Positions 18,145 through 55,066 of a stretch of 64,000 nt of DNA are shown in pieces. The position numbers and the translations under genes are program-made. The DNA is from an uncultured Acidimicrobiales bacterium (GTDB taxonomy: Bacteria > Actinomycetota > Acidimicrobiia > Acidimicrobiales > CALAML01). Position 1 is the first letter of the stretch. The number at the start of each line of letters is the position of its first letter. The stretch lies in NCBI GenBank assembly GCA_937925845.1, contig CALAML010000150.1:8235-72234 (forward strand). The letters are read 5' to 3'. The notes beneath the pieces were generated by a model. That model did no database searches. It was not told where the DNA came from and worked only from the letters and a program-made list of their open reading frames with translations.

Positions 18145-19200
18145 ATGCGGGTTGCCATCGAGGCGCCTTGGCTGGCTCGTCCCGCAGGTGGCATGACCGT
18201 GTTGTTCGCCTACGGCAACGGTCTGGTCGACCGAGGCCACCAAGTGGCGATGATCGCGACCCGGATGGGCCACGGCGTGCCCGATGGCGGGGAGAGCGTC
18301 GACGAGCTGCGGAGCCTCGACTGGTTGACGGTGGACGATCGACTCCAGCTGGTCGATGGCGGCGACGCAGCCGCAGTGGCCGCGCTCGAACCCGACGTGC
18401 TGATCCGCTTCAGCCCCGAACCGCTGGCCGGCCCTCCACCCTGGCGGGCCGCCGAGCTGGTGGTGATCCAGGCCCTCCGCGTGCTGCCCAATGAGTTCGA
18501 ACAGCCGCTGCTGTCGTATCCAGCCCCCAAGTTGGCGGTGGCCCGCTGGCTGGCGGACGCCGCTGATGCCCACCACCACGAACTTGGCCTCACCCAGCCG
18601 GTCTTCCATCTCCCCAACGGGATCGACCATCGCCGGTTCCGACCCCCGGCCGACTCGGAAGCGTCCGATGCCGAGCGGCCCATCGACGTGGCCATGATCT
18701 ATAACCCCGCGCCCAGCAAAGCGACGCCGGTTGGGGTTAAGGCCACCGAAGCGGTCCGAGCCACCCACCCGGCGCTGCGGGTGGAGATGTTTGGCGCCTA
18801 CCCCCGCCCCGACTGGCTCGAACCCCACATCACCTACCACGAACAACCGGCCCGCCAACAGCTAGTCGAGCTGTACCAGCAGTCGAAGGTGTTTCTGCTC
18901 AGCTCCGGAGTGGAAGGCTTCGGGCTGGCCTCACTCGAAGCCATGGCCTGTGGGGCGGCGCTGGTCACCACCAACAACGGCGGTTCGGCCGACTTCGCTG
19001 AAGCCGACCACAACGCCCTGGTCGCGGCCCCCGGCGACCCCGAAGCCCTCGCCGCCCACCTCCAGACCCTGCTTCGCGACCCGGCCCGGCGGGCGGAGAT
19101 CGCAGCAGCCGGCCTGGCCACCGCGCAACGATTCCGCTGGTCGACCACGATCGATGGCCTCGAAGCCCTTCTTCTGCAGATGGTCGACCCCCAAGGCTGA
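18145..19200 (+). CDS. GT4-family (GT-B) glycosyltransferase
   Basis: 'SSGVEGFGLASLEAMACGAALVTTNNGG' carries the E-x7-E retaining GT-B motif. Confidence 0.85.
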   Translation: MRVAIEAPWLARPAGGMTVLFAYGNGLVDRGHQVAMIATRMGHGVPDGGESVDELRSLDWLTVDDRLQLVDGGDAAAVAALEPDVLIRFSPEPLAGPPPWRAAELVVIQALRVLPNEFEQPLLSYPAPKLAVARWLADAADAHHHELGLTQPVFHLPNGIDHRRFRPPADSEASDAERPIDVAMIYNPAPSKATPVGVKATEAVRATHPALRVEMFGAYPRPDWLEPHITYHEQPARQQLVELYQQSKVFLLSSGVEGFGLASLEAMACGAALVTTNNGGSADFAEADHNALVAAPGDPEALAAHLQTLLRDPARRAEIAAAGLATAQRFRWSTTIDGLEALLLQMVDPQG

Positions 19201-19216
19201 CCGCTACTCTGGCCTC

Positions 19217-20038
19217 ATGGCGGAAGAGACGGCGGCGGGCTCGGGCTATCTCTACGCGGTGACCGGGGAACCCCATCGCCGCGAGGCCATCGCGTCGGCC
19301 ACCCAGCTCCGAGCCGTGGCGCCCAAAGCCTCGATCACCCTCGTATGCGACGGTGCTGACCTGGCGGAAAAGCTCGGCGATCAGAACCCGTTCAGCGAGA
19401 TCCGCTACCGGGCTCCGGCGCCACCGATCACCGACAACCCAATGACCGAAGGGTTCCGGTATGTGATCGAGACGCTGGCCGAAGGACTCCCCTACGCCCG
19501 TACCGTGTTCCTCGACAGCGACACCTGGGCCGCCTCCAACCCGGCGGCGTTGTTTGCCGTGGCCCGCTTCACCGACGTGGCCGCGGTGCTTGAACCCAAC
19601 GCCCACTTCGAAGGATCGGTGGTGGCCGACGACCGCCCGATCCACGCCGCCCCCCGCTACAACACCGGCGTGATCCTGCTCACCCGACGGCCGATCGTTG
19701 AGGCGATGCTCGCCGACTGGCGGGAGCGGTTCACCACCCGCTTCACCGAAGGCACCCACGGCTTCGAGACCGACCAGCGGACCTTCGCCGAAGCGGCTCT
19801 GGCATCGCGGGCCCGGGTGCTCCCGCTCGAGAACAACTGGAACTTTCGCACCCCCTTCTATATGACGGTCTCCGGCGCGGTCCGCATCCTCCACGGCCGC
19901 CACGTCGACCCGGCCGCTGCGGCAGCCACCCTCAACGCCAGCAACCTCAACCGGGTGTGGGACCCCTTCACCCACGAGGTCTCGCTGCTCGACCCGGAGC
20001 GGGTGGTCGAACACGGCTTCCACCTCCCGGCCTCATGA
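19217..20038 (+). CDS. putative GT-A-fold nucleotide-sugar transferase (GT8-like)
   Basis: ORF opens at 18950. I use ATG 19217, after the upstream stop. 'RTVFLDSDTW' (DxD) and 'YNTGVILL' resemble the GT8/LPS-glycosyltransferase core. Confidence 0.55.
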   Translation: MAEETAAGSGYLYAVTGEPHRREAIASATQLRAVAPKASITLVCDGADLAEKLGDQNPFSEIRYRAPAPPITDNPMTEGFRYVIETLAEGLPYARTVFLDSDTWAASNPAALFAVARFTDVAAVLEPNAHFEGSVVADDRPIHAAPRYNTGVILLTRRPIVEAMLADWRERFTTRFTEGTHGFETDQRTFAEAALASRARVLPLENNWNFRTPFYMTVSGAVRILHGRHVDPAAAAATLNASNLNRVWDPFTHEVSLLDPERVVEHGFHLPAS

Positions 20039-20051
20039 ACAGCCCGGCCTC

Positions 20052-20807
20052 ATGAGCCCGACCATCGATCGCGACTACCGCGTCAACGACGTGGATATCT
20101 CGCTGCGCTGCTTCCATACCGGGCCCAGCCAACTGGTGAGCCATCTGATCCTGACCGGCGAAACCTACGCCGTGCCGCCAATCGAGCAGTTGGTCACCGC
20201 CGGGGCCGCTCCGGTCATCGTCGACATCGGCGCCAACATCGGCGCCTCCAGCGTGTGGTTCGCGGCCAACTACCCCAGCGCGGTGATCCATGCCGTCGAA
20301 CCCTCGCCCGACTGCCTACCGCTGCTCACCCACAACCTCCAGCCTTGGCCCCACACCCAGATCCACCCGATCGGCCTCGGCGACCACGACCACACCGCTC
20401 CGCTCTACCACGGGGTCAAAGACCCGGTCACCGGCTCGCTGATCCCCAGCGCCCTCACCGCCGAGTCATCGGTGCCCGTGACCGTCCGTGGCGCAAGCGA
20501 CTGGCTGAACGAAACCGGCATCGACCACATCGACGTGTTGAAGCTCGACACCGAAGGATCCGAAGTGCCGATCCTTTCCCATCTCATCGCCTCCCACGCG
20601 GCGATGGTGGCCGACATCTCTCTTCTGCACCTCGAGTTCCACAGCGAAACCGACCGCCGCCGACTCGACGACCTGCTCCAACCAACCCACTCCCTGACCG
20701 CGGGCACCGTCTTTGACTCGCACCGCGGCGAAGTCACCTACTCGTCGCGACGCTTCCTTGAGCGCACCGGCGACCCCGATGGCCAACGCATTGCTCTTGA
20801 TCCATGA
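20052..20807 (+). CDS. FkbM-family SAM-dependent methyltransferase
   Basis: 'VIVDIGANIGASS' and 'IDVLKLDTEGSEVPIL' are FkbM hallmarks. Confidence 0.85.
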   Translation: MSPTIDRDYRVNDVDISLRCFHTGPSQLVSHLILTGETYAVPPIEQLVTAGAAPVIVDIGANIGASSVWFAANYPSAVIHAVEPSPDCLPLLTHNLQPWPHTQIHPIGLGDHDHTAPLYHGVKDPVTGSLIPSALTAESSVPVTVRGASDWLNETGIDHIDVLKLDTEGSEVPILSHLIASHAAMVADISLLHLEFHSETDRRRLDDLLQPTHSLTAGTVFDSHRGEVTYSSRRFLERTGDPDGQRIALDP

Positions 20808-21442
20808 CCCAGCTGCGGCCCACGCCCGAGATGCGGATCATCATGAACCAGCTCCACCAGGAGCGCCGCACCATGGTGAGCCGGCCCCGGCTGATCTCAC
20901 TGGCCCACCACTGCACCAACCTCGCCGGACAGGGCGCCTTAGTGGAGTGCGGCGTGGCCCGCGGCGGCTGCCTGGCCATGATGGCACTGATGGCCAAAGG
21001 GCGATCCGACGTGTGGGGGTTCGACTCGTTCGCTCCCATGCCCGAACAGACCCCTGAGGACGACGGCGTCGGCGAAGAATGGGTCGGCTGGCAGGCGGCC
21101 GATGTTGCCCAGGTCGACACCACCCTCTCGCTGTTTGAGCTCGACCGCAGCACCATTCACGTGGTGCCCGGCTGGTTCGAAGACACCCTCGAGGCCCAGC
21201 GCGACCAGATCGGCCCGATCGCGGTGCTCCGCCTCGACAACGACTGGTACCGCTCCACCCGGTACTGCCTCGAAACGCTCTATGACCAGGTGATACCCGG
21301 CGGCGCGGTGATCCTCGACGACTACTACGAGTTCCCCGGCTGCCGCCGAGCCACCGACGAGTTTCGAGCAAAGAACAACATCACCGCCGAGATCATCGAA
21401 ACCGAAGCCGGCACCGAGGGCTACTGGATCGTCCCTGCTTGA
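20804..21442 (+). CDS. TylF/MycF-family (macrocin-type) O-methyltransferase
   Basis: 'LVECGVARGG', 'AVLRLDNDWYRSTRYCLETLY' and 'PGGAVILDDYYEFPGCRRA'. ATGA overlap with the upstream gene. Confidence 0.85.
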   Translation: MTQLRPTPEMRIIMNQLHQERRTMVSRPRLISLAHHCTNLAGQGALVECGVARGGCLAMMALMAKGRSDVWGFDSFAPMPEQTPEDDGVGEEWVGWQAADVAQVDTTLSLFELDRSTIHVVPGWFEDTLEAQRDQIGPIAVLRLDNDWYRSTRYCLETLYDQVIPGGAVILDDYYEFPGCRRATDEFRAKNNITAEIIETEAGTEGYWIVPA

Positions 21443-21465
21443 AAAAGCAACAAGGCAACGGCCGA

Positions 21466-22764
21466 TCAGCTCAGCGCCGCTGCGCACCGCTGGCTGCGTT
21501 CCGAGACGAGGGCTACCAGCCGGTCGGGCAGATCGGTCGAGAGCTCACCGACGCCACCGTCACTAACGGCATGCTCAAACGCCGCAGGGGTTCGCTCCGC
21601 CAGGTCGAGTACTCGGGTGATGAGTCGACGGCGATCGAGTTTTAGCTCGTCGGCTGCGTGCTCCCAGGCGCGGCGTCGGTCGGTTCGGCGCAGGTCGTAG
21701 TCGTCACCGACTTTCATGGCGAGCTTCACCTTGTAACCGGACGTGTCGTCATAGGGCAGGATTGAGGCGATGTCATAGAGCGGCGCCAACCTGATCTGAT
21801 TGCCGGCGAGCAGGAGGCTGTAGTTCTTTGCATGGGCGTCGGTGCCCGCGATCAGCCAGTTGAACGCGAGGGCGTCGGTGAATCTCCATACGTCGGTCTC
21901 GGCGTCGCGTCCAGGGATGGTCGAGCGGATCAACTCGGCGATCTGGCCGGGCGTCGGCCCGCCATCGGACTGATACTTGCGCGCCGGCGAAACCGACAGG
22001 GCCTGACACAGATCCTCCTGATGCACCCGTACCAGCTCTCCGTTTCGGGTTGAGCGGTCGAACCGCTCCACGACGATGGCGCTCTCATCCTCGAACGTTT
22101 CGATACGCGTGTCGGCGGCCGGCAGACCAAGCGCCCTCGCGGCGGCAAGGCACAGGTGCTCGTTGATGTGCTGGTCCTGGAACCCCACCATCGCCGGTTT
22201 GAGGATGTGGGTAGTCGGAACCGAACCGGTCGGTGCTCCCCATCGGCCCCGTCCCGTGGCGGCCACATGGTGCAGGGCGGTCTTCGCCTGGGCACCGCCA
22301 AGGCTGAACTGGCCGGTGAATCCGGGGCCAAGCCAGCTGGTCGAGTCGGCCCGAAGCGTCCGCAGCCGGGACGCAATCTCAGCCTCGGAGAGCCACGTGA
22401 TGTCGCCAGGTCTATTGAGGAGATCGTCGGCGTGATCTGGTGTGCAGAACTGCACGGCCCCAGCACAGTCGTGACCGACGTGGGTGCCGAGCAACGGGAA
22501 CGGCGACGACACCGACACGCCAAAGTTGCGACCCCAACGGGTGAGCACGTCGGCATTGTCGGGCAAAAGACCCCACAACCACGGTGTGATCCGAGCGTCA
22601 CCGTGGAGTTCCTGCGCTGGCGGCATCGACGCCGACAACAGCGTCGCCGTCGACTCACCCCGGTACCCGTCGTTATAGCGAAGGCGAAGAGCACCGCTTG
22701 CCAGGCGTTCGACATTGCCGACCGGCTTCCCTTCGAGGAGGACGGTCAACACATCGGACGCCAT
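21466..22764 (-). CDS. hipA: HipA-family serine/threonine kinase toxin
   Basis: 'FSLGGAQAKTAL' and 'IAGTDAHAKNYSLLL' form the HipA catalytic core. 432 aa. Confidence 0.9.
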   Translation of the reverse strand: MASDVLTVLLEGKPVGNVERLASGALRLRYNDGYRGESTATLLSASMPPAQELHGDARITPWLWGLLPDNADVLTRWGRNFGVSVSSPFPLLGTHVGHDCAGAVQFCTPDHADDLLNRPGDITWLSEAEIASRLRTLRADSTSWLGPGFTGQFSLGGAQAKTALHHVAATGRGRWGAPTGSVPTTHILKPAMVGFQDQHINEHLCLAAARALGLPAADTRIETFEDESAIVVERFDRSTRNGELVRVHQEDLCQALSVSPARKYQSDGGPTPGQIAELIRSTIPGRDAETDVWRFTDALAFNWLIAGTDAHAKNYSLLLAGNQIRLAPLYDIASILPYDDTSGYKVKLAMKVGDDYDLRRTDRRRAWEHAADELKLDRRRLITRVLDLAERTPAAFEHAVSDGGVGELSTDLPDRLVALVSERSQRCAAALS

Positions 22765-23030
22765 CAGGAGCCGCCCTCGATGATCTGGCTGAGATCGACG
22801 GTCGCCCCGTCCGGGCCTGGCACGGCAACGAAGGTGATCGCCAGGTCAAGGGCGCTCAGCACCGACAACGCTCGACCCAGTTCGGCGGTTCGCTTTCCCG
22901 TCTCGAGCTCCGACAGCCAGGGCCGCCCGACACCAGCCTGTGCAGCAAGCTGGACTTGCGACAAACCCTGATCCTTGCGAGCCCGCCTCACCGCAGCCCC
23001 GAACCCTTTGGTTGTTTGGATTGGTCGCAT
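22764..23030 (-). CDS. hipB: XRE-family HTH antitoxin (HipB-like)
   Basis: HTH 'LSQVQLAAQAGVGRPWLSELETGK'. Its stop overlaps the hipA start by 1 nt. Confidence 0.85.
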   Translation of the reverse strand: MRPIQTTKGFGAAVRRARKDQGLSQVQLAAQAGVGRPWLSELETGKRTAELGRALSVLSALDLAITFVAVPGPDGATVDLSQIIEGGS

Positions 23031-23142: not shown

Positions 23143-25764
23143 CTAGTCGAAGGCGGGTCGACGGATGGCGCTCTGTAGCTCCCAGGAACGGATCGTGGGG
23201 CCGACGGCCACGTTGCCGACCTGGGCCCGGTTTACCCCTCGAGGATCCTCCACCACCAGGGTCGCGGGACCCAGCTCGGCCAGCGCCGGAACATGGTCGA
23301 CCCAGTCGCCGGGCCCAAACCCGATCTTGGCGTCGCGAACCAGGGCGAACCACCCGGCGAAGTCGTGGTCGAGCTCCACGGTGTAGGGAAACTCACGGCC
23401 AAAGGCCGGCAGCACCGCCAACTGGGCCCGAATCGTGGTCTCCAAACCCGAATAATCGCCGTCGGGCCACTCGGCCCGCACCAGGTCCTCGACCTCCGCC
23501 ATCAGCTCGGGCCACGACACCGGCGGCACCATCAACAGATGGGTGAGCTCATAGGCGGTGGCCAGGTTGGGATAGGTGTCGGGCGACTCAAGGATCAGCG
23601 CCAGCATCCGGCGCATGGCATCCACCTCACGCACACCGGCATGGCGGCGCAGGTAACGCAACACGTGGCGAAACACGCCGAAGGTCTCCGACAGGATGTA
23701 CATCAACCGCAGCTGACCCATGTAGCGGTAGTCATCGCGGGTGAACGACGCCGACGACACCACCAGCTCCCGACGCTGAGGGGCGCCCTGGAGAATATTG
23801 AAATCGGAAACGATGGCTTCGGTGCCGATCTCGAAGCGCTGGCGATACTCCGGGTCGTTCATCGGACTGTTCAATAACAGCTCGGTCTCATACACATGAG
23901 CGGTGATCTCTCGGTCCATGCACTGCTGAAGGTCCTCCGCCATCGACTCCGGAGTCTGGCCCGGCAGGCCAATCATCAGATGCACGTTCACCGGCAGGTC
24001 GTGTTCACGAAACTCGGCGGTCAGCTCGTCGTACTTGGCGGTCTTGATGTTTGACCGCTCGATGGCGGCGAGGGTGGTCTCGTCCATCGACTGCAACGAA
24101 ACGGTTCCGGTGGTGAGGATGTCGACCTCGACCAGCACCTCGATGATCTCGCGGAGGTACTTCACCGTGTTCTTGGCGTAGTTGGTGGTGAACTCCCGGG
24201 GAAACCCAAACTCCCGCCGGGTATCGGCGATCTGTCTGGCGAAGTCGATGTCGCGTTTGCGAATACCGAAGTTGGCGTCGGCGATGAAGATGCCCCGCAA
24301 CTGGTTCTCACCCACAAAGCGGATCTCGCCGTTCACCCGCTCCTCGTCGTACATACGAATCCGCGAGTTGGTGGCTGAGCCCCAGTCGCAGAACGTGCAC
24401 TTGTACGGACAACCGCGGTTGGTCTCGATGATGGGACCGGCATAGGACGGCAGGATCGAATCAAAGACGCCACTGAGATACGGCGACGGCACCTCGTTGG
24501 GATCCTCCATGCGGTCGCGATCCGGACCCCGCGCCGCCGAGCCGTCGGCGCGCCGGTAGGCCAACCCGGCGACCGACTCCAGACAACTCACGTCGAAGGT
24601 GCCGCTCTCGCGATAGGCCTCGGCCAGCGTCGACATCAGGTCGGCGGCGGTCAGCTCGCCCTCGCCGATCACGGCCACATCCACGCTCGGATTGTCGGCG
24701 AAGAACCGGCGAGTATCGAGCGGATACTTCGGCACGTTCGGACCGCCGTGCACCATGATTGCTTCCGGGTTGCGAGCCTTGATGGCGGCGCAGACCGCCA
24801 ACAGCTCGTGGGTGTTCCACACGTAGTCGGAGAACAGGTACACCGCCGGCCCCGATGGCAGCTCGTCCAAATCCAACGACGGCTGGACGAAACGCGGGGT
24901 GAGATCAAACACCTCGGCTAAGGCGGGCCGGCCCAGGGCCTCCATCGCGCTGTAGACCAGGCCCAGAGCCAAGGGGATGTTCAACAGGTCATACCAAACC
25001 CCGAACACCGGAATCCGCCCGCCCGAATCAGCGGCGGCGGAGTCCAACCCACGCAGGGGCGACGGATGATCGGCATGAGGATTGCCGGTCAGCCGCAGCT
25101 GGTTGCGACTGTGGGCCTGACGGCGAGCCACGCGGTCGGCCTGCGGCTCCAACAACCCGGCGTCGAGGGCAAAGTTCACCAGAGCCCACGCCCGCTCGGG
25201 CTTGACCGGGCTGGCCTCGATCACCGGTGCCGGCTCGGTGGCCCGCCGGAACGACGCCAGCAGCTGCACCTCAAAGGGCCGAAGCAGCACGGCATCGGTG
25301 GCTCGCCCATCGAGTCGACCGGCGAGGAGGAAACCGCCCGGTCGGGGCGACAGGAGCACCGGCGTGTCGAGCACTAAACGCGCGTGATCGGAGGGTTCGG
25401 CCGCTTCAGTCTCGCCGGCATCACCACCGAGGCTGCGCTCGCGGACCGAGCGGGGATCGGCGGCATCCGCGGAGCCGGGTGCCTCATCGACCAGCAACCC
25501 GTCGTCGAGGAGATGGTCGAGCAACTCCACCAGCTTCGGCCCATCAAAACGGGCCCGCAACCCGTCATCGGACAGGTCGGTGCCGGCGGCGAGAAAGGTG
25601 AGCAGGGCCAGACCCCGCGGGGTGATCGGTTGCCACTCAAGGGTGTCGACCCCTGAAGCCCCATCGGTGGCGAGGCGGGTCCGCGGGATCCCCAACCCGG
25701 TACCGGTGATGCCCACCACCACGCGAGGCGAAAGCCAGCGCGCTGAGTCCCCTCCCGATTTCAT
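23143..25764 (-). CDS. B12-binding-domain radical SAM enzyme with large N- and C-terminal extensions
   Basis: ORF 23143..25809. I use ATG 25764, 7 nt after the upstream stop. Cobalamin-domain pattern 'AAIKARNPEAIMVHGGPNVP...VDVAVIGEGE'. Radical-SAM cluster 'NRGCPYKCTFCDWG' (CxxxCxxC). About 270 aa precede and about 300 aa follow the core. Confidence 0.85.
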   Translation of the reverse strand: MKSGGDSARWLSPRVVVGITGTGLGIPRTRLATDGASGVDTLEWQPITPRGLALLTFLAAGTDLSDDGLRARFDGPKLVELLDHLLDDGLLVDEAPGSADAADPRSVRERSLGGDAGETEAAEPSDHARLVLDTPVLLSPRPGGFLLAGRLDGRATDAVLLRPFEVQLLASFRRATEPAPVIEASPVKPERAWALVNFALDAGLLEPQADRVARRQAHSRNQLRLTGNPHADHPSPLRGLDSAAADSGGRIPVFGVWYDLLNIPLALGLVYSAMEALGRPALAEVFDLTPRFVQPSLDLDELPSGPAVYLFSDYVWNTHELLAVCAAIKARNPEAIMVHGGPNVPKYPLDTRRFFADNPSVDVAVIGEGELTAADLMSTLAEAYRESGTFDVSCLESVAGLAYRRADGSAARGPDRDRMEDPNEVPSPYLSGVFDSILPSYAGPIIETNRGCPYKCTFCDWGSATNSRIRMYDEERVNGEIRFVGENQLRGIFIADANFGIRKRDIDFARQIADTRREFGFPREFTTNYAKNTVKYLREIIEVLVEVDILTTGTVSLQSMDETTLAAIERSNIKTAKYDELTAEFREHDLPVNVHLMIGLPGQTPESMAEDLQQCMDREITAHVYETELLLNSPMNDPEYRQRFEIGTEAIVSDFNILQGAPQRRELVVSSASFTRDDYRYMGQLRLMYILSETFGVFRHVLRYLRRHAGVREVDAMRRMLALILESPDTYPNLATAYELTHLLMVPPVSWPELMAEVEDLVRAEWPDGDYSGLETTIRAQLAVLPAFGREFPYTVELDHDFAGWFALVRDAKIGFGPGDWVDHVPALAELGPATLVVEDPRGVNRAQVGNVAVGPTIRSWELQSAIRRPAFD

Positions 25765-25771
25765 AGCGGCT

Positions 25772-47507: not shown

Positions 47508-47559
47508 CAGTCTCCGAGACAGATCAGGCTTTGGTCGATCCTCCGGCCTCCACTAATCT

Positions 47560-48627
47560 GTGAAGATGGGCGGCGGCGAGATTGAAGAGGGCGAAGACGC
47601 GCAACCCTTTGAGGGCTCCCAGCAGTCCAGGCTGCCCTTTGCCATCGGTGGCCTGGTGGGCCACCTGAGTCGGGGCGAGGGGCATCGAGATCCGGCGCCG
47701 GACGCCGGATCGATCGACACGCTGGTGGAAAAAGAGGACATCCCCGACGACCAGCTGACCGAGCTGAACTTTCGTCCGGTTTCCGAACTCAACACCAGCC
47801 TCTCGATGTTTGTCTGGCGAGCCACCGCGGTGCTGCGGTATCAGCCGTCGCTGGTGCGCCAGATGTTCAAGCGGGACTTCACCGCGGTCTACCGCAGTTC
47901 CAAACTCGGACTCTTCTGGCTGGTGCTCACGCCGCTGGCCACCATGTCCTCGTGGCTGCTGCTTCGCTACAGCGGCGTGGTGCTCGACTCGACCACGGCC
48001 GGAGCTGGAGGAGGCTCCACCGCCGACTTCATCCTGTTGCTGTTGGTGAACATCACCCTGTGGAGCGGTTTCCGCACCGTGATCGGCACGTTGCGCAACT
48101 CAATGCGTCGATCCTCACTGCTGCTTCAGGTTCGCTTCCCTCACGAGGCGGTGCTGTTGCAGAACCTCCTGACCTCCGCAGTGCAGATGGTCATCCCGGT
48201 GATCCTGCTGCTGATCTTCGTGGTGTTGTCGGGCAACGCCGGAGGGCTTGTGGGAGCGCTCCTGTTCCCCCTTGCCGTGATCCCGCTGTACATTGCGGCC
48301 ACCGCCGTGGGCCTCGTGGCCGCCCCGCTGTCGGTGGTGTTCCCCGATGTGACACGGGCCATCGACGTGGTGCTGGGCTTTATGTTTGTGGCCACCCCGA
48401 TCATCTACCAGCGCGAGATCATCGCCGACAAAGAGTTCGTGAACACCGCAGTCGGGTGGAACCCACTCACCCACCTGCTCGGCTGGCCCCGTGACCTCCT
48501 CCTTGGCGAAACCACCACATCGTTGTTGCCGCTACTCGGCAGCATCGGCGGATCCGTCGTGCTGCTGCTCTTTGCCATCCGGCTCTTTTCCGTCGGCTCC
48601 CGGCTCGTGGCTGAGCGGCTGGTCTGA
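47560..48627 (+). CDS. ABC-2-type polysaccharide export permease (Wzm/TagG/KpsM-like)
   Basis: 'FKRDFTAVYRSSKLGLFWLVLTPL' is the ABC-2 N-terminal signature, followed by about 6 hydrophobic helices. The start is uncertain: 47560 (GTG) gives an 82-aa acidic extension, while ATG 47806 gives a typical 273-aa permease. Confidence 0.8.
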   Translation: MKMGGGEIEEGEDAQPFEGSQQSRLPFAIGGLVGHLSRGEGHRDPAPDAGSIDTLVEKEDIPDDQLTELNFRPVSELNTSLSMFVWRATAVLRYQPSLVRQMFKRDFTAVYRSSKLGLFWLVLTPLATMSSWLLLRYSGVVLDSTTAGAGGGSTADFILLLLVNITLWSGFRTVIGTLRNSMRRSSLLLQVRFPHEAVLLQNLLTSAVQMVIPVILLLIFVVLSGNAGGLVGALLFPLAVIPLYIAATAVGLVAAPLSVVFPDVTRAIDVVLGFMFVATPIIYQREIIADKEFVNTAVGWNPLTHLLGWPRDLLLGETTTSLLPLLGSIGGSVVLLLFAIRLFSVGSRLVAERLV

Positions 48628-49841
48628 TGAGCGATCCGGCCATGCCCCTCGACGACACCTCCATTGATGACACCGCCGGTGCGGCGCCCATCGGGCGCAT
48701 GTCGAAATACCGGTCCGACCGCAGCGCACTGGTCGTCGCCCGCCGAGCCCGGGTCGAGGCTCTCGCGGCATCGCGCCAAGCCAAAGCGGAGCACGCCGAA
48801 CTCAAAGCCAGCAAAGCCAGCGCCAAGGCCATTCGCGAGTCACGAAGCCGGCTCGATGCCCGGGTCGCGGAGTACTACCAGGCCCAATCCGAACTGAACC
48901 GGCTTCGGGCCGACACCCAGGAGGGCGAACGAAACCTGGTTGAACTCCAGGAACAACTCGACGATGACGAGTTCACCGAACGCGACCTGGTGGTGGCGCC
49001 GGGCCCGGCGGAAGCCCGGCTCGCCACTATCGACCTCCGCGACGAAGCCGCTCCCACCCCGGCCGCCGAGACGACGACGCCCCTCCTCGAGGCCACCGAC
49101 GTCTCAAAGAAGTTCGCCACCAACCTCGACCAAAGCCTCCGCTATGGGCTGGCCGATCTCGGCCGTCTCGCCATCGGCCGTAAGCCAAAATTCCACGCGC
49201 TTCGCGACGAGGAGTTCTGGGCGGTACGAGACATCAACCTCAAGCTCAACCGGGGCGACAGCCTCGGGATCCTGGGCTCCAACGGTTCCGGCAAGTCAAC
49301 CCTGGTCAAGATTCTGGCCGGCATCCTCGCACCCGATGAAGGCGAGGTAACGGTTCGCGGCCGGCTCACCTCGGTGGTGAGCGTTGGCGCCGGATTTCAT
49401 CCCCACCTCAGCGGGTTGGAGAACATCCGAGTCAACGCCGCGGTGCTCGGTATCGAACCCGACGAGCTCGATCAACTCGAACCCGAGATCATCGCCTTCT
49501 CCGGCCTCGGTGAGCGGCTCTACAAGCCGGTCGGGATGTACTCATCGGGCATGCGTATGCGGCTCGGCTTTGCCGTGGCTACCGCGGTCGATCCCGACGT
49601 CATGATCTTCGATGAGGTGCTGGCCGTCGGAGACCAGCGGTTCAGGAACCGCTGCATCGAACGGATGGCGGAACTGCGCGAAGGGGCAGCGACCGTAATG
49701 GTCTCGCAGTCGCCGGTGATGCTCGGCAACTACTGCTCGCAGGCCATCTGGCTCGATGGTGGTGAAGTTCGCGGGTTCGGCTCGATCGACGACGTCGGCG
49801 ATGCCTACCTCGAAGCCTCAGAGCTCGGCACGGTCCACTAG
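48627..49841 (+). CDS. ABC exporter ATP-binding protein (Wzt/TagH/KpsT-like) with ~155-aa N-terminal coiled-coil extension
   Basis: Walker A 'GSNGSGKST', signature 'YSSGMRMRLGFA' and Walker B 'VMIFDEVLAVGD'. ATGA overlap with the permease gene. Confidence 0.9.
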   Translation: MSDPAMPLDDTSIDDTAGAAPIGRMSKYRSDRSALVVARRARVEALAASRQAKAEHAELKASKASAKAIRESRSRLDARVAEYYQAQSELNRLRADTQEGERNLVELQEQLDDDEFTERDLVVAPGPAEARLATIDLRDEAAPTPAAETTTPLLEATDVSKKFATNLDQSLRYGLADLGRLAIGRKPKFHALRDEEFWAVRDINLKLNRGDSLGILGSNGSGKSTLVKILAGILAPDEGEVTVRGRLTSVVSVGAGFHPHLSGLENIRVNAAVLGIEPDELDQLEPEIIAFSGLGERLYKPVGMYSSGMRMRLGFAVATAVDPDVMIFDEVLAVGDQRFRNRCIERMAELREGAATVMVSQSPVMLGNYCSQAIWLDGGEVRGFGSIDDVGDAYLEASELGTVH

Positions 49842-49851: not shown

Positions 49852-50877
49852 CTAGTTCTCTGGACGGGGAAGCGGATTTACCTCGCCGGACTCGGAGTAG
49901 CCAAAGGCCTCCAAGCGGGACTTCGCCAACTTCCACGCCGCCCGCTTCTGCCGCGACGAGAGGCTGGTCTGCCACTCACCCACCGCCCCTTTGCGGACCA
50001 CACCCACCCCTTCAGAACCGCGGGGACGGCCGGTGACCCGTTCGAAATCGGTGAGGGCCTCGATGTCGTCGAGCACCGACTGGTCGTCCCGCACGCCAAG
50101 CCAGCTCAACAGGGCCCCCAGAGTGGCGCTGAAGTCATTGGTCAGATCCTCGTAGCGGAGCAGATACAGGTTCGAGTCACGGTGATGGCGGTCGACGATC
50201 TTGGCGACCGATACCCAGTCGCGAAGCAGCTCCTGAAACGGCTTGTGGCCACCGAACCAGGGCATATCCTCCATCAGCTTCTTGTATTGCTGGGCGCTGA
50301 TCGACGCATCGCGACCATCCCTGGTGATCACCACCACGCGGGCGTCAGGGCGCCACTGATGGATCACATCAACAAAGCCAGCCTGGTTCGCCGACTTCAG
50401 TACCACCGCCTGGGTTCCGGGCGACCGGGTGCGAATCAGCGCCAGGAAGTCATCCATCAAGGCATAGGGCGAGCTGGCCGCTTGGCAGCGTCGATAGAAG
50501 CGCCGAACCTCGGCGGGCGGCAGATCGGCGATGCTCAATGGCCGCCGCAGGTCGACCTCAGCACTGTCATCCTCACGGGCGAGGGTGCGCTCCAGCGCAT
50601 TGCCATGGGACCACGCACTCGACTGGAACAGCAGTCGGTTCCGGACCTCTATCTCGGTGAGCGACACCGACTCCCCGCCGCGGTCACAGCAGGCCTGAAG
50701 CAGGCCCAGCTCGCGCACGCCGAGCAGTTCGGGGTGGGCCGAGAGCGCGGCGAGCAGCCACGAGGTCCCACACTTGTACTGACCCACAATGCAGATGGGA
50801 AGTGGGTTGTCGGTGGAGGCTTCCAAGTGAACAGTCGCAGCTAGTGGGGGGACGAACGGTGAACCGCGGCGGCTCAC
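49852..50877 (-). CDS. sulfotransferase (P-loop type)
   Basis: 'ICIVGQYKCGTSWLLAAL' (5'-PSB) and 'VITRDGRDASISA' (3'-PB). Confidence 0.85.
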   Translation of the reverse strand: MSRRGSPFVPPLAATVHLEASTDNPLPICIVGQYKCGTSWLLAALSAHPELLGVRELGLLQACCDRGGESVSLTEIEVRNRLLFQSSAWSHGNALERTLAREDDSAEVDLRRPLSIADLPPAEVRRFYRRCQAASSPYALMDDFLALIRTRSPGTQAVVLKSANQAGFVDVIHQWRPDARVVVITRDGRDASISAQQYKKLMEDMPWFGGHKPFQELLRDWVSVAKIVDRHHRDSNLYLLRYEDLTNDFSATLGALLSWLGVRDDQSVLDDIEALTDFERVTGRPRGSEGVGVVRKGAVGEWQTSLSSRQKRAAWKLAKSRLEAFGYSESGEVNPLPRPEN

Positions 50878-50889: not shown

Positions 50890-52299
50890 CTACCTGGTCT
50901 GGTTTGTGAAGCGCCGCAACTTGCGGTCGAGGGTGCGGGCGGTACGGGTAAACCTCGGCCGGCCGATCAGGTTGTTGCACTCCGATGGGTCGGCGGTGAG
51001 GTCATAGAGTTCCCGCCCACCACCGGCATAGAGGGTGTAGCGCCAGTTGCGCCACCGGATCGAGTGGTTGCCCTCCCAGTGCATGATCGCCGGGCGGGCG
51101 TCGGCCTCCTGGCGGGTGATGCCGACCAGACTCTCACCCTCAAACCCAGCGAAGGTGTTGCTTCCGGCGACATCAAGAATGGTGGGGGCCACGTCGACCA
51201 GGCTCACCGGCTTGGCGAACCGGCCACCGGCCTTCAGCCCCGGCGCTCGAACCAGCAACGGCACCCGAGTGGCCTGGTTCCACAGAGTCGACTTCCGCCA
51301 GTGGAGCTTCTCACCGAGGTGGTAGCCGTGATCGGAGACCAACACGACCGAAGTGTTGTCGTTGTGGGGCGAGGACGCCAGGCTGTCCATGATCTGGCCG
51401 ACCATGGCATCGGTATGGGTGATAGCGGCCAGGTAGGCCTGGACCAGTCGGCGTTGGGCCCGCTGCCGCGTGACCTGTTCGTGCTGGGTTCGGCCGCCGA
51501 AGAGAATCGGCCGTTGGGCCAGTACCCGACCCATACGGGGGACATCGGCCAGGTCGTTCGGGCAGTTGGGCTGAGGGAGCTCAACGCTGCTGATCGGATG
51601 CTGATCGAAAGCCCACTGAGGCACCCGCCACGGCACATGGGGCTGATAGAGGCCCACGGCCATAAAGAACGGGAGGCGAGGGTTGGCGATATGGCGGGAA
51701 AACCAGTTGGCGGTCCGCTGATCCTCATGGACCTCCGAAGGCGGCATGACGCCGACCTCGAAGAACGTCTTTTGGAAGCTCGGATTACTTCGGTTGGCGA
51801 TCTCAGGAAGTTCCCGGTAGTTGCCGGCCACCGTCCAGCGATCGGGGAGGGCGTCATGAAACACCTTGCCCCGGTTGTAGGTGACCCAACCGCGCGATCC
51901 CAACACCTCGGGAATAGTGAGGCGGCCGGAGTTCTGGAGACTGCGGTAGCTCTGGAAGCTCCCGACACCAGTCGACTCAACCCCTGTGGTTTGCGGCGAG
52001 ACGCCCCACATCATCGATGCCCTCGATCCAATGCATGTCGGCACGCTGCAGTAGGCGTTGTCGAACGAGAACGACTCGGCCCGCAGCGCGTCGATGTTTG
52101 GGGTCTTTACGCCCGGATGGCTGTCGAGGTAGCCCACCCAGTCGCGGAGATCGTCGATATAGAGCATCAGCACATTGCGCCGACCCCCACGTCGACCCTG
52201 AGCGCTGGCCTGGCCCGCTTGGCCCAGCGTGACCCCACCCAGGGATCCCGCGGCGGTCGCCGCTGCGGCTCCCCCAATGAACGTCCGCCTGTTAAGCAT
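50890..52299 (-). CDS. Tat-exported sulfatase (iduronate-2-sulfatase-like) with a C-x-G-S-R active-site motif
   Basis: Twin-arginine signal 'MLNRRTFIGGAAAATAAG...ASAQ'. 'NVLMLYIDDLRDW' (metal-binding DD) and 'KTPNIDAL'. Active-site segment 'CIGSRASMMWG' sits where sulfatases have CxPSRxxxxTG. GAAGGTGGAAG RBS. Confidence 0.85.
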   Translation of the reverse strand: MLNRRTFIGGAAAATAAGSLGGVTLGQAGQASAQGRRGGRRNVLMLYIDDLRDWVGYLDSHPGVKTPNIDALRAESFSFDNAYCSVPTCIGSRASMMWGVSPQTTGVESTGVGSFQSYRSLQNSGRLTIPEVLGSRGWVTYNRGKVFHDALPDRWTVAGNYRELPEIANRSNPSFQKTFFEVGVMPPSEVHEDQRTANWFSRHIANPRLPFFMAVGLYQPHVPWRVPQWAFDQHPISSVELPQPNCPNDLADVPRMGRVLAQRPILFGGRTQHEQVTRQRAQRRLVQAYLAAITHTDAMVGQIMDSLASSPHNDNTSVVLVSDHGYHLGEKLHWRKSTLWNQATRVPLLVRAPGLKAGGRFAKPVSLVDVAPTILDVAGSNTFAGFEGESLVGITRQEADARPAIMHWEGNHSIRWRNWRYTLYAGGGRELYDLTADPSECNNLIGRPRFTRTARTLDRKLRRFTNQTR

Positions 52300-52401: not shown

Positions 52402-53844
52402 TCAGGCTTGCGACAACAAATTCTGCAAGGTGTTCAGGGTTGAGGCGTAGGCCGGATCACCACTCAAGTTGGTGCACTCCGACGGATCGGCCGACAGGTC
52501 GTAGAGTTCTTCGCCCCCCGCCACGTAGGTGGTATAGCGCCACCGGCGCCAGCGAATCGAGCGGTTGCCCTGCCACTGCATCACCGCGGGACGAGCATCG
52601 GCCTGGGCCGTGGTCAGGCCCAGCAGCGTTTGGCCTTCAAAGCCGGGGTGCGGCGATGCGCCGGCGGCATCAAGCACCGTTGGGGCGACATCGATCAGGC
52701 TGACCGGACGACCGGACACCCCGCCCGGAGCCAGGCCCGGACTGCGAACCAACAGCGGGGTGCGGGTGGCCTGCTCCCAGAGCGTCGACTTGCGCCAGTG
52801 CAGCTTCTCACCGAGGTGATAGCCGTGGTCGGAAACCAGCAGCACCGAGGTGTCGTCGCCGTGGGGCGAGTCGGCGAGAGCGTTGAGGAGCTGACCAATC
52901 ATGGCATCGGTGTGGGTGATCGACGCCAGATATGCCTGAACCAGGGCCCGACGCTGACCACTGGCTTCGATCAGATCCTCGTTGGTGGTGCCAAAGAGCC
53001 GGGGTCGGGCGGCCAACTCCACCGCCGTCGGCGGCACATCGGCGAGATCATCGACACAGTTCGGTTGTGGCACCACCACGCCACCGATCGGGTGCTGATC
53101 GTATGCCCACTGCGGCACCCGCCAAGGCACGTGCGGCTGATAGAGCCCGACGGCCATAAAGAACGGCAGCTCCGGCGACTGCAACTGCTGGATGAACCAG
53201 TTCACCGTGGCCTGATCGGTGTGCACCTCGCCGCTCGGCAGCACCCCGTAGTCGAACAGGGTTTGCCAGAAGGTGGGGTTGGAGGTGTCGAGCAACTCCT
53301 GAATTTCGGGGTACGGCGCAGCCACATCCCACCGGTCGGGCAGAGCGTTGTGGAACACCTTGCCGCGGTTGTAGGTGGTCCAGCCCCGATTGGATAACAC
53401 CTCCGGGATGGTGCGGGCCGCCGATGCCACCAGCGGACCGTAGGCCCGGTCGCCTTCGGCAATGGTGGTGTCGACACCGGTAGTGGAGGGGCGAAGGCCC
53501 CACATGGTCGAAGCTCGGGAGCCCAGACAGCTCGGGACGGCACAGAACGCTCGATTAAAGGCAAACGATTCGGCCCGCAGCGCGTCAATATTTGGCGTCT
53601 TTACCCCCGGGTGGCTGCCCATATAGCCGACCCAGTCCCGCAGGTCATCGACGTAGATCATCATGACGTTGCGAGCTGAGGATGGCGTGCAGGCGCTGAG
53701 CACCGGGCCCAAGCCCAACGCCGCAGTGGCTGCGACCGTTCCCCCGAGGAACCGCCGCCGGCTGAGTGCCGGACCAGTTGCGGTGGGTGCGGTCGACCCG
53801 GCCGACGCAAGTATCGATGCCTGGCTGCCTGTTTCGTCCGCCAT
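52402..53844 (-). CDS. Tat-exported sulfatase paralog with a C-x-G-S-R active-site motif
   Basis: 'LSRRRFLGGTVAATAALGL', 'NVMMIYVDDLRDW' and 'CLGSRASTMWG'. About 60% identical to 50890..52299 by eye. Confidence 0.85.
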   Translation of the reverse strand: MADETGSQASILASAGSTAPTATGPALSRRRFLGGTVAATAALGLGPVLSACTPSSARNVMMIYVDDLRDWVGYMGSHPGVKTPNIDALRAESFAFNRAFCAVPSCLGSRASTMWGLRPSTTGVDTTIAEGDRAYGPLVASAARTIPEVLSNRGWTTYNRGKVFHNALPDRWDVAAPYPEIQELLDTSNPTFWQTLFDYGVLPSGEVHTDQATVNWFIQQLQSPELPFFMAVGLYQPHVPWRVPQWAYDQHPIGGVVVPQPNCVDDLADVPPTAVELAARPRLFGTTNEDLIEASGQRRALVQAYLASITHTDAMIGQLLNALADSPHGDDTSVLLVSDHGYHLGEKLHWRKSTLWEQATRTPLLVRSPGLAPGGVSGRPVSLIDVAPTVLDAAGASPHPGFEGQTLLGLTTAQADARPAVMQWQGNRSIRWRRWRYTTYVAGGEELYDLSADPSECTNLSGDPAYASTLNTLQNLLSQA

Positions 53845-53998
53845 GTCCGAATTCCCGCCCTTTCTTCCCGCTCGCGATACTACAACCCGAACCGGCGCAG
53901 ATCAGTGCGGTTATGAATCTTCACGTCATATACACTCATTTCAATCCATGGTGAACGCAGATGCTGCCGGCGGCGTGCCGGTGATCAAACGGGGCTAA

Positions 53999-55066
53999 GT
54001 GGCCACCATCGTGCCCTGCCTGGCCCCGATCGGCCCGCTTGATCCGGAGCCCGAAGCCGCCGATAACACCGGTTCCGGCGTCTTACGACCCGCGCCCGGC
54101 CAAGCCACCATCACCATCTTGTTGTCGACCCACAACGGTGACCGTCATCTTGGCGCGCAGCTGCAGAGCATTGCGGACCAGACCGACCGGGACTGGCGGT
54201 TGCTGGTGCACGACGACGGTTCGACCGACGGGACCAGAGCGGTTGCGGCCCGGTTCTGCGCCAGCGACGAACGCATCGAGATCCTCCCCCGCCTCACCAA
54301 CACGACCAACACCGGCTCGGTGGCCGAGATCTACCTCCGCCTTCTCGCCGTGGTCGAAACTCCCTTCTTCGCCTTCGCCGATCAGGACGACGTCTGGCTG
54401 CCCGACAAACTCGCCAACCAACGGGCCCACCTCAAGGCCGCGGGCCTCGCCGACGGCAACCGGGTGGCCATGGTGGCCTGCGATGCCCAACCCGTTGATG
54501 ACCGACTGCGGCCCAGCGGCGCCACGGTCCGGCGGCGCCAGTCCTATCGCTCGTTCGCCGAAGTCACCCTGGCCCGGCTGTTGATGGCCAACCCGATCCC
54601 CGGCAACACCATCATGGGCACCCGGGCCTTGGCCCAGATGGCCACCGCCGGAGCCGGTCGGGCCCCCATGCACGACTGGTGGGTGACTCTTTGTGCCGCG
54701 GCCCACGATGGCCTGATCGGCATCGAGAGCACCGGCGTGCTCTACCGCCAGCACGATGCCAACGCCTTCGGCACCCCGCCGGGTCTGGCCGATCGCGTGC
54801 GCAACCTGAACCGTCGACCCCTGGTTGAGCGCACCGCAGCGATCCTCAAACCGGTGGCCGCTCAGGCCGCGCTGGCGCGGTCGGTCTGGCCCACGCCACT
54901 GGTTGAGCGCCACGACAAACTGCTCGCCGCGGTAGCGGCTTGTGGGGATGAGGCCACCGACCTGCGCCGGGCCCTCATGACCTGTTGGCTACTTGGCGCT
55001 CAGCTACGGCCCTGGCCCAGCCACCTGGCCCTGATCAACGGGGCCAAAGACGGTTCAGACGCCTGA
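53999..55066 (+). CDS. GT2-family glycosyltransferase (rhamnosyltransferase-like)
   Basis: 'ITILLSTHNGDRHLGAQLQSIADQT...LLVHDDGSTDGT' and 'FAFADQDDVWLPDK' (DxD). Confidence 0.85.
   Translation: MATIVPCLAPIGPLDPEPEAADNTGSGVLRPAPGQATITILLSTHNGDRHLGAQLQSIADQTDRDWRLLVHDDGSTDGTRAVAARFCASDERIEILPRLTNTTNTGSVAEIYLRLLAVVETPFFAFADQDDVWLPDKLANQRAHLKAAGLADGNRVAMVACDAQPVDDRLRPSGATVRRRQSYRSFAEVTLARLLMANPIPGNTIMGTRALAQMATAGAGRAPMHDWWVTLCAAAHDGLIGIESTGVLYRQHDANAFGTPPGLADRVRNLNRRPLVERTAAILKPVAAQAALARSVWPTPLVERHDKLLAAVAACGDEATDLRRALMTCWLLGAQLRPWPSHLALINGAKDGSDA

Follow-up and report, generated by a model that had tools for sequence, protein, structure and literature searches.

We analyzed a 64,000-nucleotide stretch of DNA from an uncultured Acidimicrobiales bacterium (contig CALAML010000150.1; the whole stretch is called the window below), in which positions 18145–55066 had been predicted, from the letters alone, to hold one dedicated pathway for a densely decorated glycan. 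Our analysis favors this prediction. We conclude, with a probability of about 0.7, that the locus makes a sulfated, methylated cell-envelope glycan and exports it through an ATP-binding cassette (ABC) transporter in a bacterium of the class Acidimicrobiia. Sequence comparison supports a single pathway through two sets of loci: those in which the operons of this locus recur, and those that hold relatives of its largest protein, a chain of 1235 amino acids (aa) joining a predicted sulfotransferase to two glycosyltransferases.

Genes were called from the GC content of third codon positions (GC3), gene-like open reading frames (ORFs) of the window were scanned against Pfam and NCBIfam, and PDB and fold searches were run at the coordinates given in Table 1. 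The locus comprises about 27 genes. The original prediction had described six alternating operons coupled by ATGA, TGATG and GTGA overlaps; many such overlaps of stop and start codons are present, while the genes form seven strand blocks. This tight packing was counted in favor of the pathway. The boundaries first drawn for the cluster are reasonable, since it is flanked by genes of housekeeping type: alr, nadE, a cation-efflux (CDF) transporter gene, and two glnA copies with a GlnR-type regulator. An origin as a genomic island was considered and is unsupported by composition, with a GC content of 0.63–0.68 throughout.

Predicted sulfotransferases and the 1235-aa protein

We predict five sulfotransferase domains that depend on 3'-phosphoadenosine-5'-phosphosulfate (PAPS) and belong to three families. 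All five are credible because profile, fold and motif evidence agrees, and the PAPS-binding motifs that had been reported as intact are so in 5/5 domains. Two of the domains, ST2a and its paralogue ST2b, are small proteins resembling heparan-sulfate 6-O-sulfotransferase (HS6ST). Both are borderline matches to Sulfotransfer_2, whose cut-off is 22 bits; ST2a carries the motifs FYVHLQKTAGTS and LRDPVERTLS. A family profile was built from a 16-member alignment of ST2a/b homologues from related loci, in which the motifs FxHxxKxxG and RxxxxRxxS are invariant. Against the PDB, this profile matched the HS6ST structure 5T03 (E = 8e-14) across the 5'-phosphosulfate-binding (5'-PSB), 3'-phosphate-binding (3'-PB) and C-terminal regions. 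For two further proteins, ST3a and ST3b, all PDB matches were sulfotransferases; ST3a also matched NoeE weakly. A gene like ST3a lies 3' of the same kind of polymerase in the related loci L003, L027, L030, L036 and L164, and the verrucomicrobial loci show the arrangement of the window, with the ST3a-like gene 3' of the polymerase.

The fifth domain is the N-terminal part of the 1235-aa protein. The Pfam scan of the full-length protein gave a weak, non-significant match to Sulfotransfer_3 (E = 0.003), and the domain as a single-sequence query had no match in the PDB. Its homologues carry PF13469, the profile of its family matched nothing but sulfotransferases in the PDB, and the motifs G-x-H-R-x-G-T-S (present as an HRSGTS loop), K-D-P-R and R...S are invariant in an alignment of 13 sequences. 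The AlphaFold2 (AF2) model of the domain has a predicted local distance difference test (pLDDT) score of 89.7, and the top 20 PDB structures found by Foldseek are all PAPS sulfotransferases. Among these structural neighbors are TPST, the CurM and OLS sulfotransferase domains, and the mycobacterial Stf1, Stf9 and Stf0.

In the 1235-aa protein the sulfotransferase (residues 1–256) is followed by a spacer (about 257–600) and by glycosyltransferase domains of the GT2 (606–822) and GT4 (1057–1219) families. The spacer of some 340 residues favors helix, with an AF2 helix at 257–294. A heptad heuristic, whose score is crude, was positive at 255–320, 345–395 and 430–520, and there was a weak match to ATG16. 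When 1.84 billion cluster representatives were scanned in full with this protein, 9224 matches were obtained at E <= 1e-30. In 96 of the best 149 cluster representatives, the same N-terminal sulfotransferase family is followed by GT2 and GT4, and across 92 homologues the spacer measures between 113 and 1078 aa (median 268). The closest relative in the species-representative collection, at 47% identity, comes from an Acidimicrobiales metagenome-assembled genome (MAG).

The sulfotransferase-spacer-glycosyltransferase layout recurs across phyla beside wzm/wzt, rml and PAPS-synthesis genes. L001 holds Wzm, a Wzt with the Wzt_C domain (E = 1e-30), heptose genes and a sulfotransferase-linker-glycosyltransferase protein. 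In L164 the order is radical-SAM/SPASM, PhyH, sulfotransferase-GT2-GT4, sulfotransferase, PhyH, Wzt and Wzm, with rmlABCD close by, and in L166 cysNC and cysD stand beside the fusion protein and Wzm. L165, from a low-GC organism of another phylum, has the polymerase type, two ST2-like genes and MBOAT/AlgX acetylation genes.

Conserved neighborhood, proposed pathway and competing explanations

With the 1235-aa protein as the sole anchor for synteny, no locus of the 80 compared had more than two genes in common with the window. Switching the anchor to the 1096-aa protein, which combines three methyltransferase domains with a GT2, revealed a conserved neighborhood. Full-length homologues of this protein, about 50% identical, number at least 954, the named ones all from Acidimicrobiia, Acidimicrobiales or Actinomycetota MAGs; its gene is a lineage-typical marker and the anchor of an Acidimicrobiia cluster family. 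On these grounds the host is placed in Acidimicrobiia, and the GlnR-type regulator beside glnA likewise supports an actinobacterium. We compared 24 related loci with lengths of 12 kb or more, the majority of which came from scanning metagenomes with this gene as anchor. ST2-like genes adjoin the anchor in 12/24 (up to six copies), PhyH3-like genes occur in 12/24, hexapeptide transferases in 8/24, and radical-SAM/SPASM genes together with PhyH1/2 in 6/24. Among all loci fetched on the 1096-aa gene, a sulfotransferase domain of the N-terminal type was found in at least 11, sulfatases in six, B12-radical-SAM in three and Wzt in two. In L082 (a 4.7-Mb genome) and L083 (a 41-kb contig), one or two ST2-like genes lie directly upstream of the anchor, and around it are PhyH, radical-SAM/SPASM, further methyltransferases, further sulfotransferases and giant multi-glycosyltransferase proteins.

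The set that recurs in Acidimicrobiia loci thus consists of radical-SAM/SPASM, PhyH, acetyltransferase, two small sulfotransferases and the 1096-aa protein. Since the same kinds of gene recur together in dozens of related loci, and partly in other phyla too, the genes did not come together by chance, and the central operons form a recurrent functional unit and are not chance neighbors. The number of homologues and the repeated sulfotransferase, PhyH, radical-SAM and acetyltransferase neighbors indicate a widespread, uncharacterized cluster type, of whose large family the locus is one member. No cluster for a known non-sulfated polymer was found to match.

Copy numbers vary within this family. 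The metagenome loci L113 and L118 have four to six copies of HS6ST-like small sulfotransferases around the 1096-aa gene, and in L123 and L108 the four-domain gene is present a second time in partial form; the extra copies suggest rapid diversification of sulfation patterns. Related clusters also contain BNR_4 (sialidase-like) and alginate-lyase genes (L082, 7861–8505; L083, 2432–5524), enzymes that may turn over the cell's own polymer.

In the ABC-transporter route, the chain is completed on the cytoplasmic face. This fits tailoring enzymes that depend on PAPS, S-adenosylmethionine (SAM), 2-oxoglutarate and acetyl-CoA, and no such enzyme of the locus has a signal peptide annotation. In the pathway that we propose, a primer enzyme encoded elsewhere would start the chain on polyprenyl phosphate, and the single-domain glycosyltransferases would supply an adaptor or add side branches. 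The repeat, maybe rich in rhamnose or another deoxyhexose, would be polymerized by the two glycosyltransferase modules (GT2 and GT4) of the 1235-aa protein; such a backbone is suggested by the rml genes in L164, by the CmcI/rhamnosyl-O-methyltransferase and TylF domains, and by a GT2 of the YYEDxDL type. The 1096-aa protein would add a residue and then methylate it more than once, O-sulfation of the glycan with cytoplasmic PAPS would fall to the HS6ST-like and Sulfotransfer_3/1 enzymes, and the remaining tailoring enzymes would C-methylate, hydroxylate and acetylate it. The sulfotransferase at the far end of the 1235-aa spacer may sulfate the non-reducing end, halting growth at a set length, and Wzm/Wzt would export the finished chain. 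Two sulfatases with twin-arginine translocation (Tat) signals would edit or recycle sulfate esters of the exported polymer outside the membrane, as their likeness to carbohydrate sulfatases and their recurrence in related loci suggest.

Several points weigh against this pathway. As had been noted in the original prediction, genes for a primer phosphoglycosyltransferase, PAPS synthesis and nucleotide sugars were found in none of the gene-like ORFs scanned in the window. No ligase gene lies in the window either. Priming transferases are often encoded elsewhere, and one of the WecA/WbaP type may sit outside the window. Both sulfatases carry CxGxR at the formylglycine site, with Gly in place of Pro/Ala (CxPxR), and may lack activity or have a different target. 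The sulfation of the exported glycan, its polymer backbone and its final acceptor are all parts of the pathway that we infer. Finally, only 2/24 related loci have a Wzt no farther than 10 kb from the anchor; the exporter is thus tied to the central module less firmly than the genes of that module are to one another.

This last observation also speaks for the view that the region combines at least two neighboring pathways. In such a mosaic, the conserved module at about 28.4–42.3 kb (radical-SAM/SPASM, PhyH, acetyltransferase, ST2a/b, 1096-aa protein and GT2 protein) would make a separate sulfated, methylated product, for example a glycolipid or a short oligosaccharide. The operon at 42.5–49.8 kb would make and export a different polymer, and neither the left operon nor the sulfatases would belong with either of these. 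In most loci the full sulfotransferase-spacer-GT2-GT4 protein is not beside the anchor, and in the window the region is interrupted by a HipBA pair and divided into strand blocks with separate promoter regions. Nevertheless, we consider a mosaic improbable. The two parts meet in L164, where radical-SAM/SPASM and PhyH genes directly precede the fusion gene, which is followed by a sulfotransferase, another PhyH and Wzm/Wzt. They meet again in the Acidimicrobiia-type locus L116, where Wzt with Wzt_C (E = 3e-8), Wzm, a sulfotransferase-linker-GT2 protein and a GT2-GT4 protein all lie within 8 kb of the anchor. In L082, a 903-aa protein with a sulfotransferase and a zipper-like part, followed by a separate 1274-aa GT4-GT2-GT2 protein, is encoded immediately upstream of ST2-like and anchor genes. 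The pairing of the polymerase type with ST2-like genes in the other phylum (L165), and the anchor loci with N-terminal-type sulfotransferase domains counted above, argue in the same direction.

The product could also be no polymer but a sulfoglycolipid or a small natural product bearing sugars, exported by a DrrAB-like ABC-2 system and tailored by enzymes of antibiotic type (TylF, FkbM, a KedN5-like B12-radical-SAM enzyme, and the nearby SnoaL and ABM proteins). The TylF domain is structurally nearest to macrolide and novobiocin sugar O-methyltransferases, the B12-radical-SAM enzyme has its best NCBIfam match in the KedN5 family, genes for SnoaL and ABM proteins follow immediately to the right of the cluster, and the DrrA model also matches the ATPase (E = 1e-27). 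The same ATPase matches TagH (E = 1e-54) and the galactan Wzt (1e-48) far better, and the window scans showed no polyketide synthase, non-ribosomal peptide synthetase, terpene or other scaffold genes. Moreover, the six verified glycosyltransferase domains exceed the usual need of small glycosides, the family of the 1235-aa protein numbers more than 9000, and the two family members with inspected loci lie in O-antigen-like surroundings, with Wzm/Wzt plus heptose (L001) or rml (L164) genes. A small product is thus, in our estimate, a long way from probable. That the locus mainly serves the uptake and breakdown or the scavenging of external sulfated polysaccharides, with the sulfatases as key enzymes and the sulfotransferases incidental, is very improbable: the Tat sulfatases are indeed closest to sulfatases of algal polysaccharides and glycosaminoglycans, and BNR_4 and alginate-lyase genes occur in L082 and L083, but the window has no glycoside hydrolase, polysaccharide lyase, solute-binding protein or importer, its ABC system is an ABC-2 exporter, 24 of the roughly 27 genes of the locus encode biosynthetic transferases or tailoring enzymes, and PAPS-synthesis genes adjoin a relative (L166).

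Within the preferred reading, an exported envelope glycan, termination by sulfate is a tentative step, to which we would give somewhat less than even odds. It is proposed because the layout of the 1235-aa protein puts the sulfotransferase in the terminator position of capped-glycan systems. Of 28 homologues without the sulfotransferase, five have a class I methyltransferase at the N-terminus, and methyltransferases are a known terminator chemistry. In the alternative, the N-terminal domain may do nothing beyond sulfating the growing backbone. Several observations speak against a terminator: the searches of the PDB with sequences and profiles returned no WbbB or WbdD chain, so that the likeness is one of architecture alone; two Gly/Asn-rich stretches break the spacer; the coiled-coil call for the spacer comes from the crude heptad score and weak Pfam matches; and the Wzt of the window has no C-terminal carbohydrate-binding module and gave no Wzt_C match. 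Wzt proteins without this cap-reading module are also found in two relatives.

A bolder version holds that sulfate is an unrecognized terminating cap, and that a sulfotransferase-tipped helical ruler belonging to the polymerase sets chain length in Acidimicrobiia, Verrucomicrobiota and other phyla. Within Acidimicrobiia, the product would be a wall polymer common to the lineage and similar to a glycosaminoglycan, with dense sulfation and methylation, which HS6ST-like enzymes would write and Tat sulfatases would edit extracellularly. We regard this version as doubtful. In the literature searched, nothing links sulfotransferases to chain termination or to Acidimicrobiia; a 2019 census of terminator chemistry lay outside that search.

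Bacterial sulfated polysaccharides are regarded as rare, and some recent papers confine them to cyanobacteria. The locus and its relatives suggest that sulfated, methylated envelope glycans made by the ABC route may be routine products of the globally abundant, poorly cultured Acidimicrobiia. If so, the picture of the Acidimicrobiia cell surface would change, marine and soil pools of sulfated glycans would have an extra bacterial source, and compact bacterial HS6ST-like sulfotransferases would become available for glycoengineering. Sulfate may then also join the short list of chain-terminating caps (methyl, phospho-methyl and Kdo (3-deoxy-D-manno-oct-2-ulosonic acid)), a question for which the 1235-aa protein offers a directly testable system in a single polypeptide.

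Exporter, sulfatases, tailoring enzymes and flanking genes

The features of the locus are listed in Table 1.

Table 1. Genes of the 18145–55066 locus, with window coordinates, strand and supporting matches
Feature	Coordinates	Strand	Evidence and remarks
GT4 glycosyltransferase	18145–19200	+	Glycos_transf_1 E 2.8e-22; first gene of left operon
Uncharacterized protein	19217–20038	+	Coding-type GC3 of 0.86
FkbM-type methyltransferase	20052–20807	+	Methyltransf_21 E 1.5e-12
TylF-type sugar O-methyltransferase	20804–21442	+	TylF E 9e-40; ATGA overlap with FkbM gene
HipA toxin	21466–22764	-	HipA_C E 1e-52, Couple_hipA
HipB helix-turn-helix (HTH) antitoxin	22764–23030	-	HTH_31, HTH_3
B12-binding radical-SAM C-methyltransferase, KedN5-like	23143–25809	-	Radical_SAM, B12-binding; NF033712 251 bits
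TylF-like methyltransferase	25772–26905	-	TylF E 1e-19; start codon uncertain
Carboxylesterase, type B	26781–28361	-	COesterase E 1e-87
Radical-SAM/SPASM enzyme 1	28447–29625	+	Radical_SAM E 1.5e-15, weak SPASM
Radical-SAM/SPASM enzyme 2	29625–30698	+	Radical_SAM, weak SPASM
PhyH dioxygenase 1, Fe(II)/2-oxoglutarate family	30695–31408	+	PhyH E 3e-11
PhyH dioxygenase 2	31405–32196	+	PhyH E 3e-14
Hexapeptide-repeat O-acetyltransferase, EpsC/CysE-like	32240–32977	+	Hexapep; NF041874 EpsC E 2.7e-28, below cut-off
PhyH dioxygenase 3	33051–34070	+	PhyH E 1.3e-7; homologues in 12/24 related loci
1096-aa Methyltransf_24 - TylF - GT2 - CmcI/rhamnosyl O-methyltransferase	34084–37374	-	Pfam
ST2a, small HS6ST-like sulfotransferase	37375–38145	-	Sulfotransfer_2 22.5 bits
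ST2b, small sulfotransferase, ST2a paralogue	38148–38882	-	Sulfotransfer_2 21.6 bits; PAPS motifs kept
PhyH dioxygenase 4 with C-terminal helix-hairpin-helix region	38879–40426	-	PhyH E 7e-19, weak HHH_5
633-aa protein, C-terminal GT2	40439–42340	-	Glycos_transf_2 E 4.7e-5 (weak); N-terminal 270 aa unassigned
1235-aa sulfotransferase - spacer - GT2 - GT4	42503–46210	+	Pfam, AF2, Foldseek
ST3a sulfotransferase	46207–47001	+	Sulfotransfer_3 E 1.7e-23; GTGA-coupled to 1235-aa gene
Wzm ABC-2 permease	47560–48627	+	ABC2_membrane; weak match to galactan-export Wzm model
Wzt/TagH-type ATPase	48627–49841	+	ABC_tran; TagH E 1.6e-54, galactan Wzt E 2.5e-48
ST3b sulfotransferase	49852–50877	-	Sulfotransfer_3 E 1e-16, Sulfotransfer_1 E 3.7e-14
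Tat-exported S1-type sulfatase 1	50890–52299	-	Sulfatase E 3.5e-41, SGSH_C, TAT_signal; CIGSR
Tat-exported S1-type sulfatase 2	52402–53844	-	Sulfatase E 9e-41, SGSH_C, RRRFLGG signal; CLGSR
GT2 glycosyltransferase, right cluster edge	53999–55066	+	Glycos_transf_2 E 3.7e-14

The predicted ABC-2 glycan exporter proved to be of the TagH/Wzt type by NCBIfam, and Wzx flippase and Wzy polymerase families had no match in any scanned ORF of the window. The wzm and wzt genes are joined by a TGATG overlap. In Wzt the nucleotide-binding domain occupies residues 193–395, and the protein ends nine residues later. Both proteins have N-terminal extensions with coding-type GC3 and no family match: a hydrophilic one of about 95 aa in Wzm (47560–47850), and a charged, helical one of about 190 aa in Wzt (48627–49200). 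The Wzt extension might replace the C-terminal binding module or contact the polymerase spacer. An ORF with a TTG start between ST3a and wzm (47046–47507) was considered as a gene; it has no matches and a weak coding signal, and was treated as non-coding. This leaves a 558-bp gap (47002–47559) inside an otherwise tightly packed operon, which may hold an internal promoter or regulatory element.

The two sulfatases were confirmed as such by Pfam, with RR signals on both, and in sulfatase 2 the Tat signal is followed by a possible lipobox (LSAC). Their best PDB matches are carbohydrate sulfatases (arylsulfatase 6HHM and iduronate-2-sulfatase), with the Cys of the motif aligned to the formylglycine Cys. 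No gene for a formylglycine-generating enzyme was found within the window. In view of the unusual formylglycine motif, the radical-SAM/SPASM pair was considered for the role of anaerobic sulfatase maturases, and no model of the anaerobic sulfatase-maturing enzyme (anSME) was among the NCBIfam matches listed. The best matches of the pair were generic SPASM maturases, far below their cut-offs, and the two genes travel with PhyH and the polymerase and not with sulfatases, which counts against a maturase role. Homologues of enzyme 1, at 40–54% identity, adjoin PhyH in L082, L083, L092, L095, L112, L122 and L164. Enzyme 2 truly starts inside the listed ORF 29256–30698, at its codon 124, an ATG; on contig L084, of identical sequence, a 357-aa gene is called at this position.

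The remaining tailoring enzymes largely agree with what had been predicted. Pfam matches were obtained for all six SAM methyltransferase domains (FkbM, TylF twice, and Methyltransf_24, TylF and CmcI in the 1096-aa protein), and the TylF domain of the 1096-aa protein matches MycF and NovP in the PDB. The B12-radical-SAM enzyme was recovered with its KedN5 match; its N-terminal part of about 300 aa has no assigned function, and homologues occur in L094, L095 and L123. All four PhyH proteins retain the HxD...H iron triad. The carboxylesterase and the hexapeptide acetyltransferase likewise matched Pfam, and homologues of the latter in the related loci are 46–61% identical.

Six of the seven predicted glycosyltransferase domains stood: those at 18145, in the 1096-aa protein, at 40439, two in the 1235-aa protein and at 53999. 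The seventh, the product of 19217–20038, is unsupported as a glycosyltransferase, since it has no Pfam, NCBIfam or PDB match; it has only three homologues among 5.8 billion proteins and an AF2 pLDDT of 42. The GT4 at 18145 has homologues at 31–37% identity in 5–7 related loci. The GT2 of the 633-aa protein is paralogous to that of the 1096-aa protein, with tblastn cross-matches of 34–40% identity in related loci, and it also cross-matches a GT2 gene that neighbors the anchor there. The GT2 at 53999 is 53% identical to the product of an anchor-adjoining gene in the closest related locus, L085. The HipBA pair (21466–23030), overlooked in the original prediction, sits between two glycan-cluster operons; its genes overlap by stop and start, HipB being an 88-aa ORF. 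Though inside the cluster, the pair is probably outside the pathway.

Further genes were noted in the flanks. A selenocysteine tRNA with anticodon TCA (11572–11663, minus strand; ARAGORN, and Rfam RF01852 at 66.5 bits) overlaps the listed 3' end of a major facilitator superfamily (MFS) transporter ORF (10208–11602); the host therefore probably uses selenoproteins. A 558-aa protein with four RTX calcium-binding repeats and two DUF6174 domains (7759–9435, plus strand) is probably secreted or surface-located. Just right of the cluster, in the region 55055–56377, are a small ABM monooxygenase on the minus strand (domain at about 55195–55420) and a protein with two SnoaL-like domains (55448–56377), both enzymes of tailoring type. 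Farther right (59511–62706, plus strand), two glutamine synthetase genes, one divergent or short, precede a GlnR-like regulator of the OmpR family, an actinobacterial nitrogen-control arrangement.

Comparison with known systems

In capped O-polysaccharide systems, a coiled-coil ruler separates the terminator, which stands distally, from the polymerase modules at the opposite end; the WbbB protein of serotype O12 unites terminator, ruler and polymerase in a single polypeptide (PMC11231755). The proposed pathway resembles the systems of Klebsiella pneumoniae O12/Raoultella terrigena WbbB and of E. coli O9a WbdA-WbdD in cytoplasmic assembly and Wzm/Wzt export. The 1235-aa protein shares with WbbB an N-terminal modifying enzyme, a long helical spacer and two C-terminal glycosyltransferase modules, and the 903-aa and 1274-aa pair of L082 resembles the WbdD/WbdA split. 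The relatives L001 and L116 have a Wzt with Wzt_C, as capped systems do; the Wzt of the window, in contrast, has the 190-aa N-terminal extension and no C-terminal module. The distal enzyme here would be a sulfotransferase, whereas WbbB and WbdD use a Kdo transferase or a kinase/methyltransferase, and Gly/Asn-rich segments interrupt the spacer, unlike that of WbbB. Since the host is presumably a single-membrane actinobacterium, the acceptor would not be lipid A-core.

The list of known bacterial sulfated glycans given with the original prediction was incomplete, lacking Cobetia marina (PMC11766843) and the predicted wps-1 cluster of Actinoplanes missouriensis (PMC13390465). C. marina KMM 1449 has a structurally proven sulfated capsule, and its cluster holds glycosyltransferases, a sulfotransferase, KpsMT and PAPS genes (PMC11766843); an ABC-dependent route and cytoplasmic sulfation are therefore compatible. 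This gammaproteobacterium differs from the window in its KpsMTED group III exporter and KpsSC Kdo linker, in having PAPS and rml/man genes within the cluster and fewer sulfotransferases, and in lacking radical-SAM, PhyH and multi-methyltransferase proteins (PMC11766843). The model sulfated exopolysaccharide (EPS), synechan of Synechocystis (xss), is made by the Wzx/Wzy route (PMC8205485), as is the EPS predicted for wps-1, a cluster that includes a methyltransferase (PMC13390465). Both clusters share dedicated sulfotransferases with the window, two or so each against five here, and both differ in using Wzx/Wzy in place of an ABC-2 exporter; the sulfation of the wps-1 product is itself a prediction.

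Mycobacterial glycopeptidolipids and phenolic glycolipids, also envelope glycoconjugates of actinobacteria, contain O-methylated deoxyhexoses, and some such glycoconjugates carry sulfate. The window has a domain of the CmcI/RMNT family, as do mycobacterial rhamnosyl/fucosyl O-methyltransferases; Stf1, Stf9 and Stf0 are structural neighbors of its sulfotransferase, and its Wzm (weakly) and Wzt match galactan-export models. Unlike the mycobacterial systems, the window has no lipid or peptide core genes, and its enzymes are no more than remotely related. We know of no mycobacterial protein that joins three methyltransferases and a GT2, as the 1096-aa protein does.

A Gram-positive ABC-dependent system is the S-layer rhamnan of Geobacillus stearothermophilus, with WsaE and Wzm/Wzt. 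WsaE is a multidomain protein of methyltransferase and rhamnosyltransferase modules that caps the chain with O-methyl. Its product is moved to the S-layer protein by an O-oligosaccharyltransferase, a gene for which is absent from the window.

ST2a and ST2b resemble animal HS6ST (5T03) in a profile match that includes both PAPS motifs, and the sulfatases match animal enzymes of the iduronate-2-sulfatase/SGSH type and carry SGSH_C. Unlike the animal HS6ST, the ST2 proteins are bacterial, soluble and about 250 aa long, and unlike glycosaminoglycan systems, the locus has no polymerase of the glycosaminoglycan synthase type. Together, the HS6ST-like and SGSH-type enzymes amount to a glycosaminoglycan-like write-and-erase set. 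ABC-transporter export of a sulfated polysaccharide was already known from C. marina, while the five predicted sulfotransferase domains of three families, the HS6ST-like pair, the fusion proteins and the lineage-wide cluster type are new.

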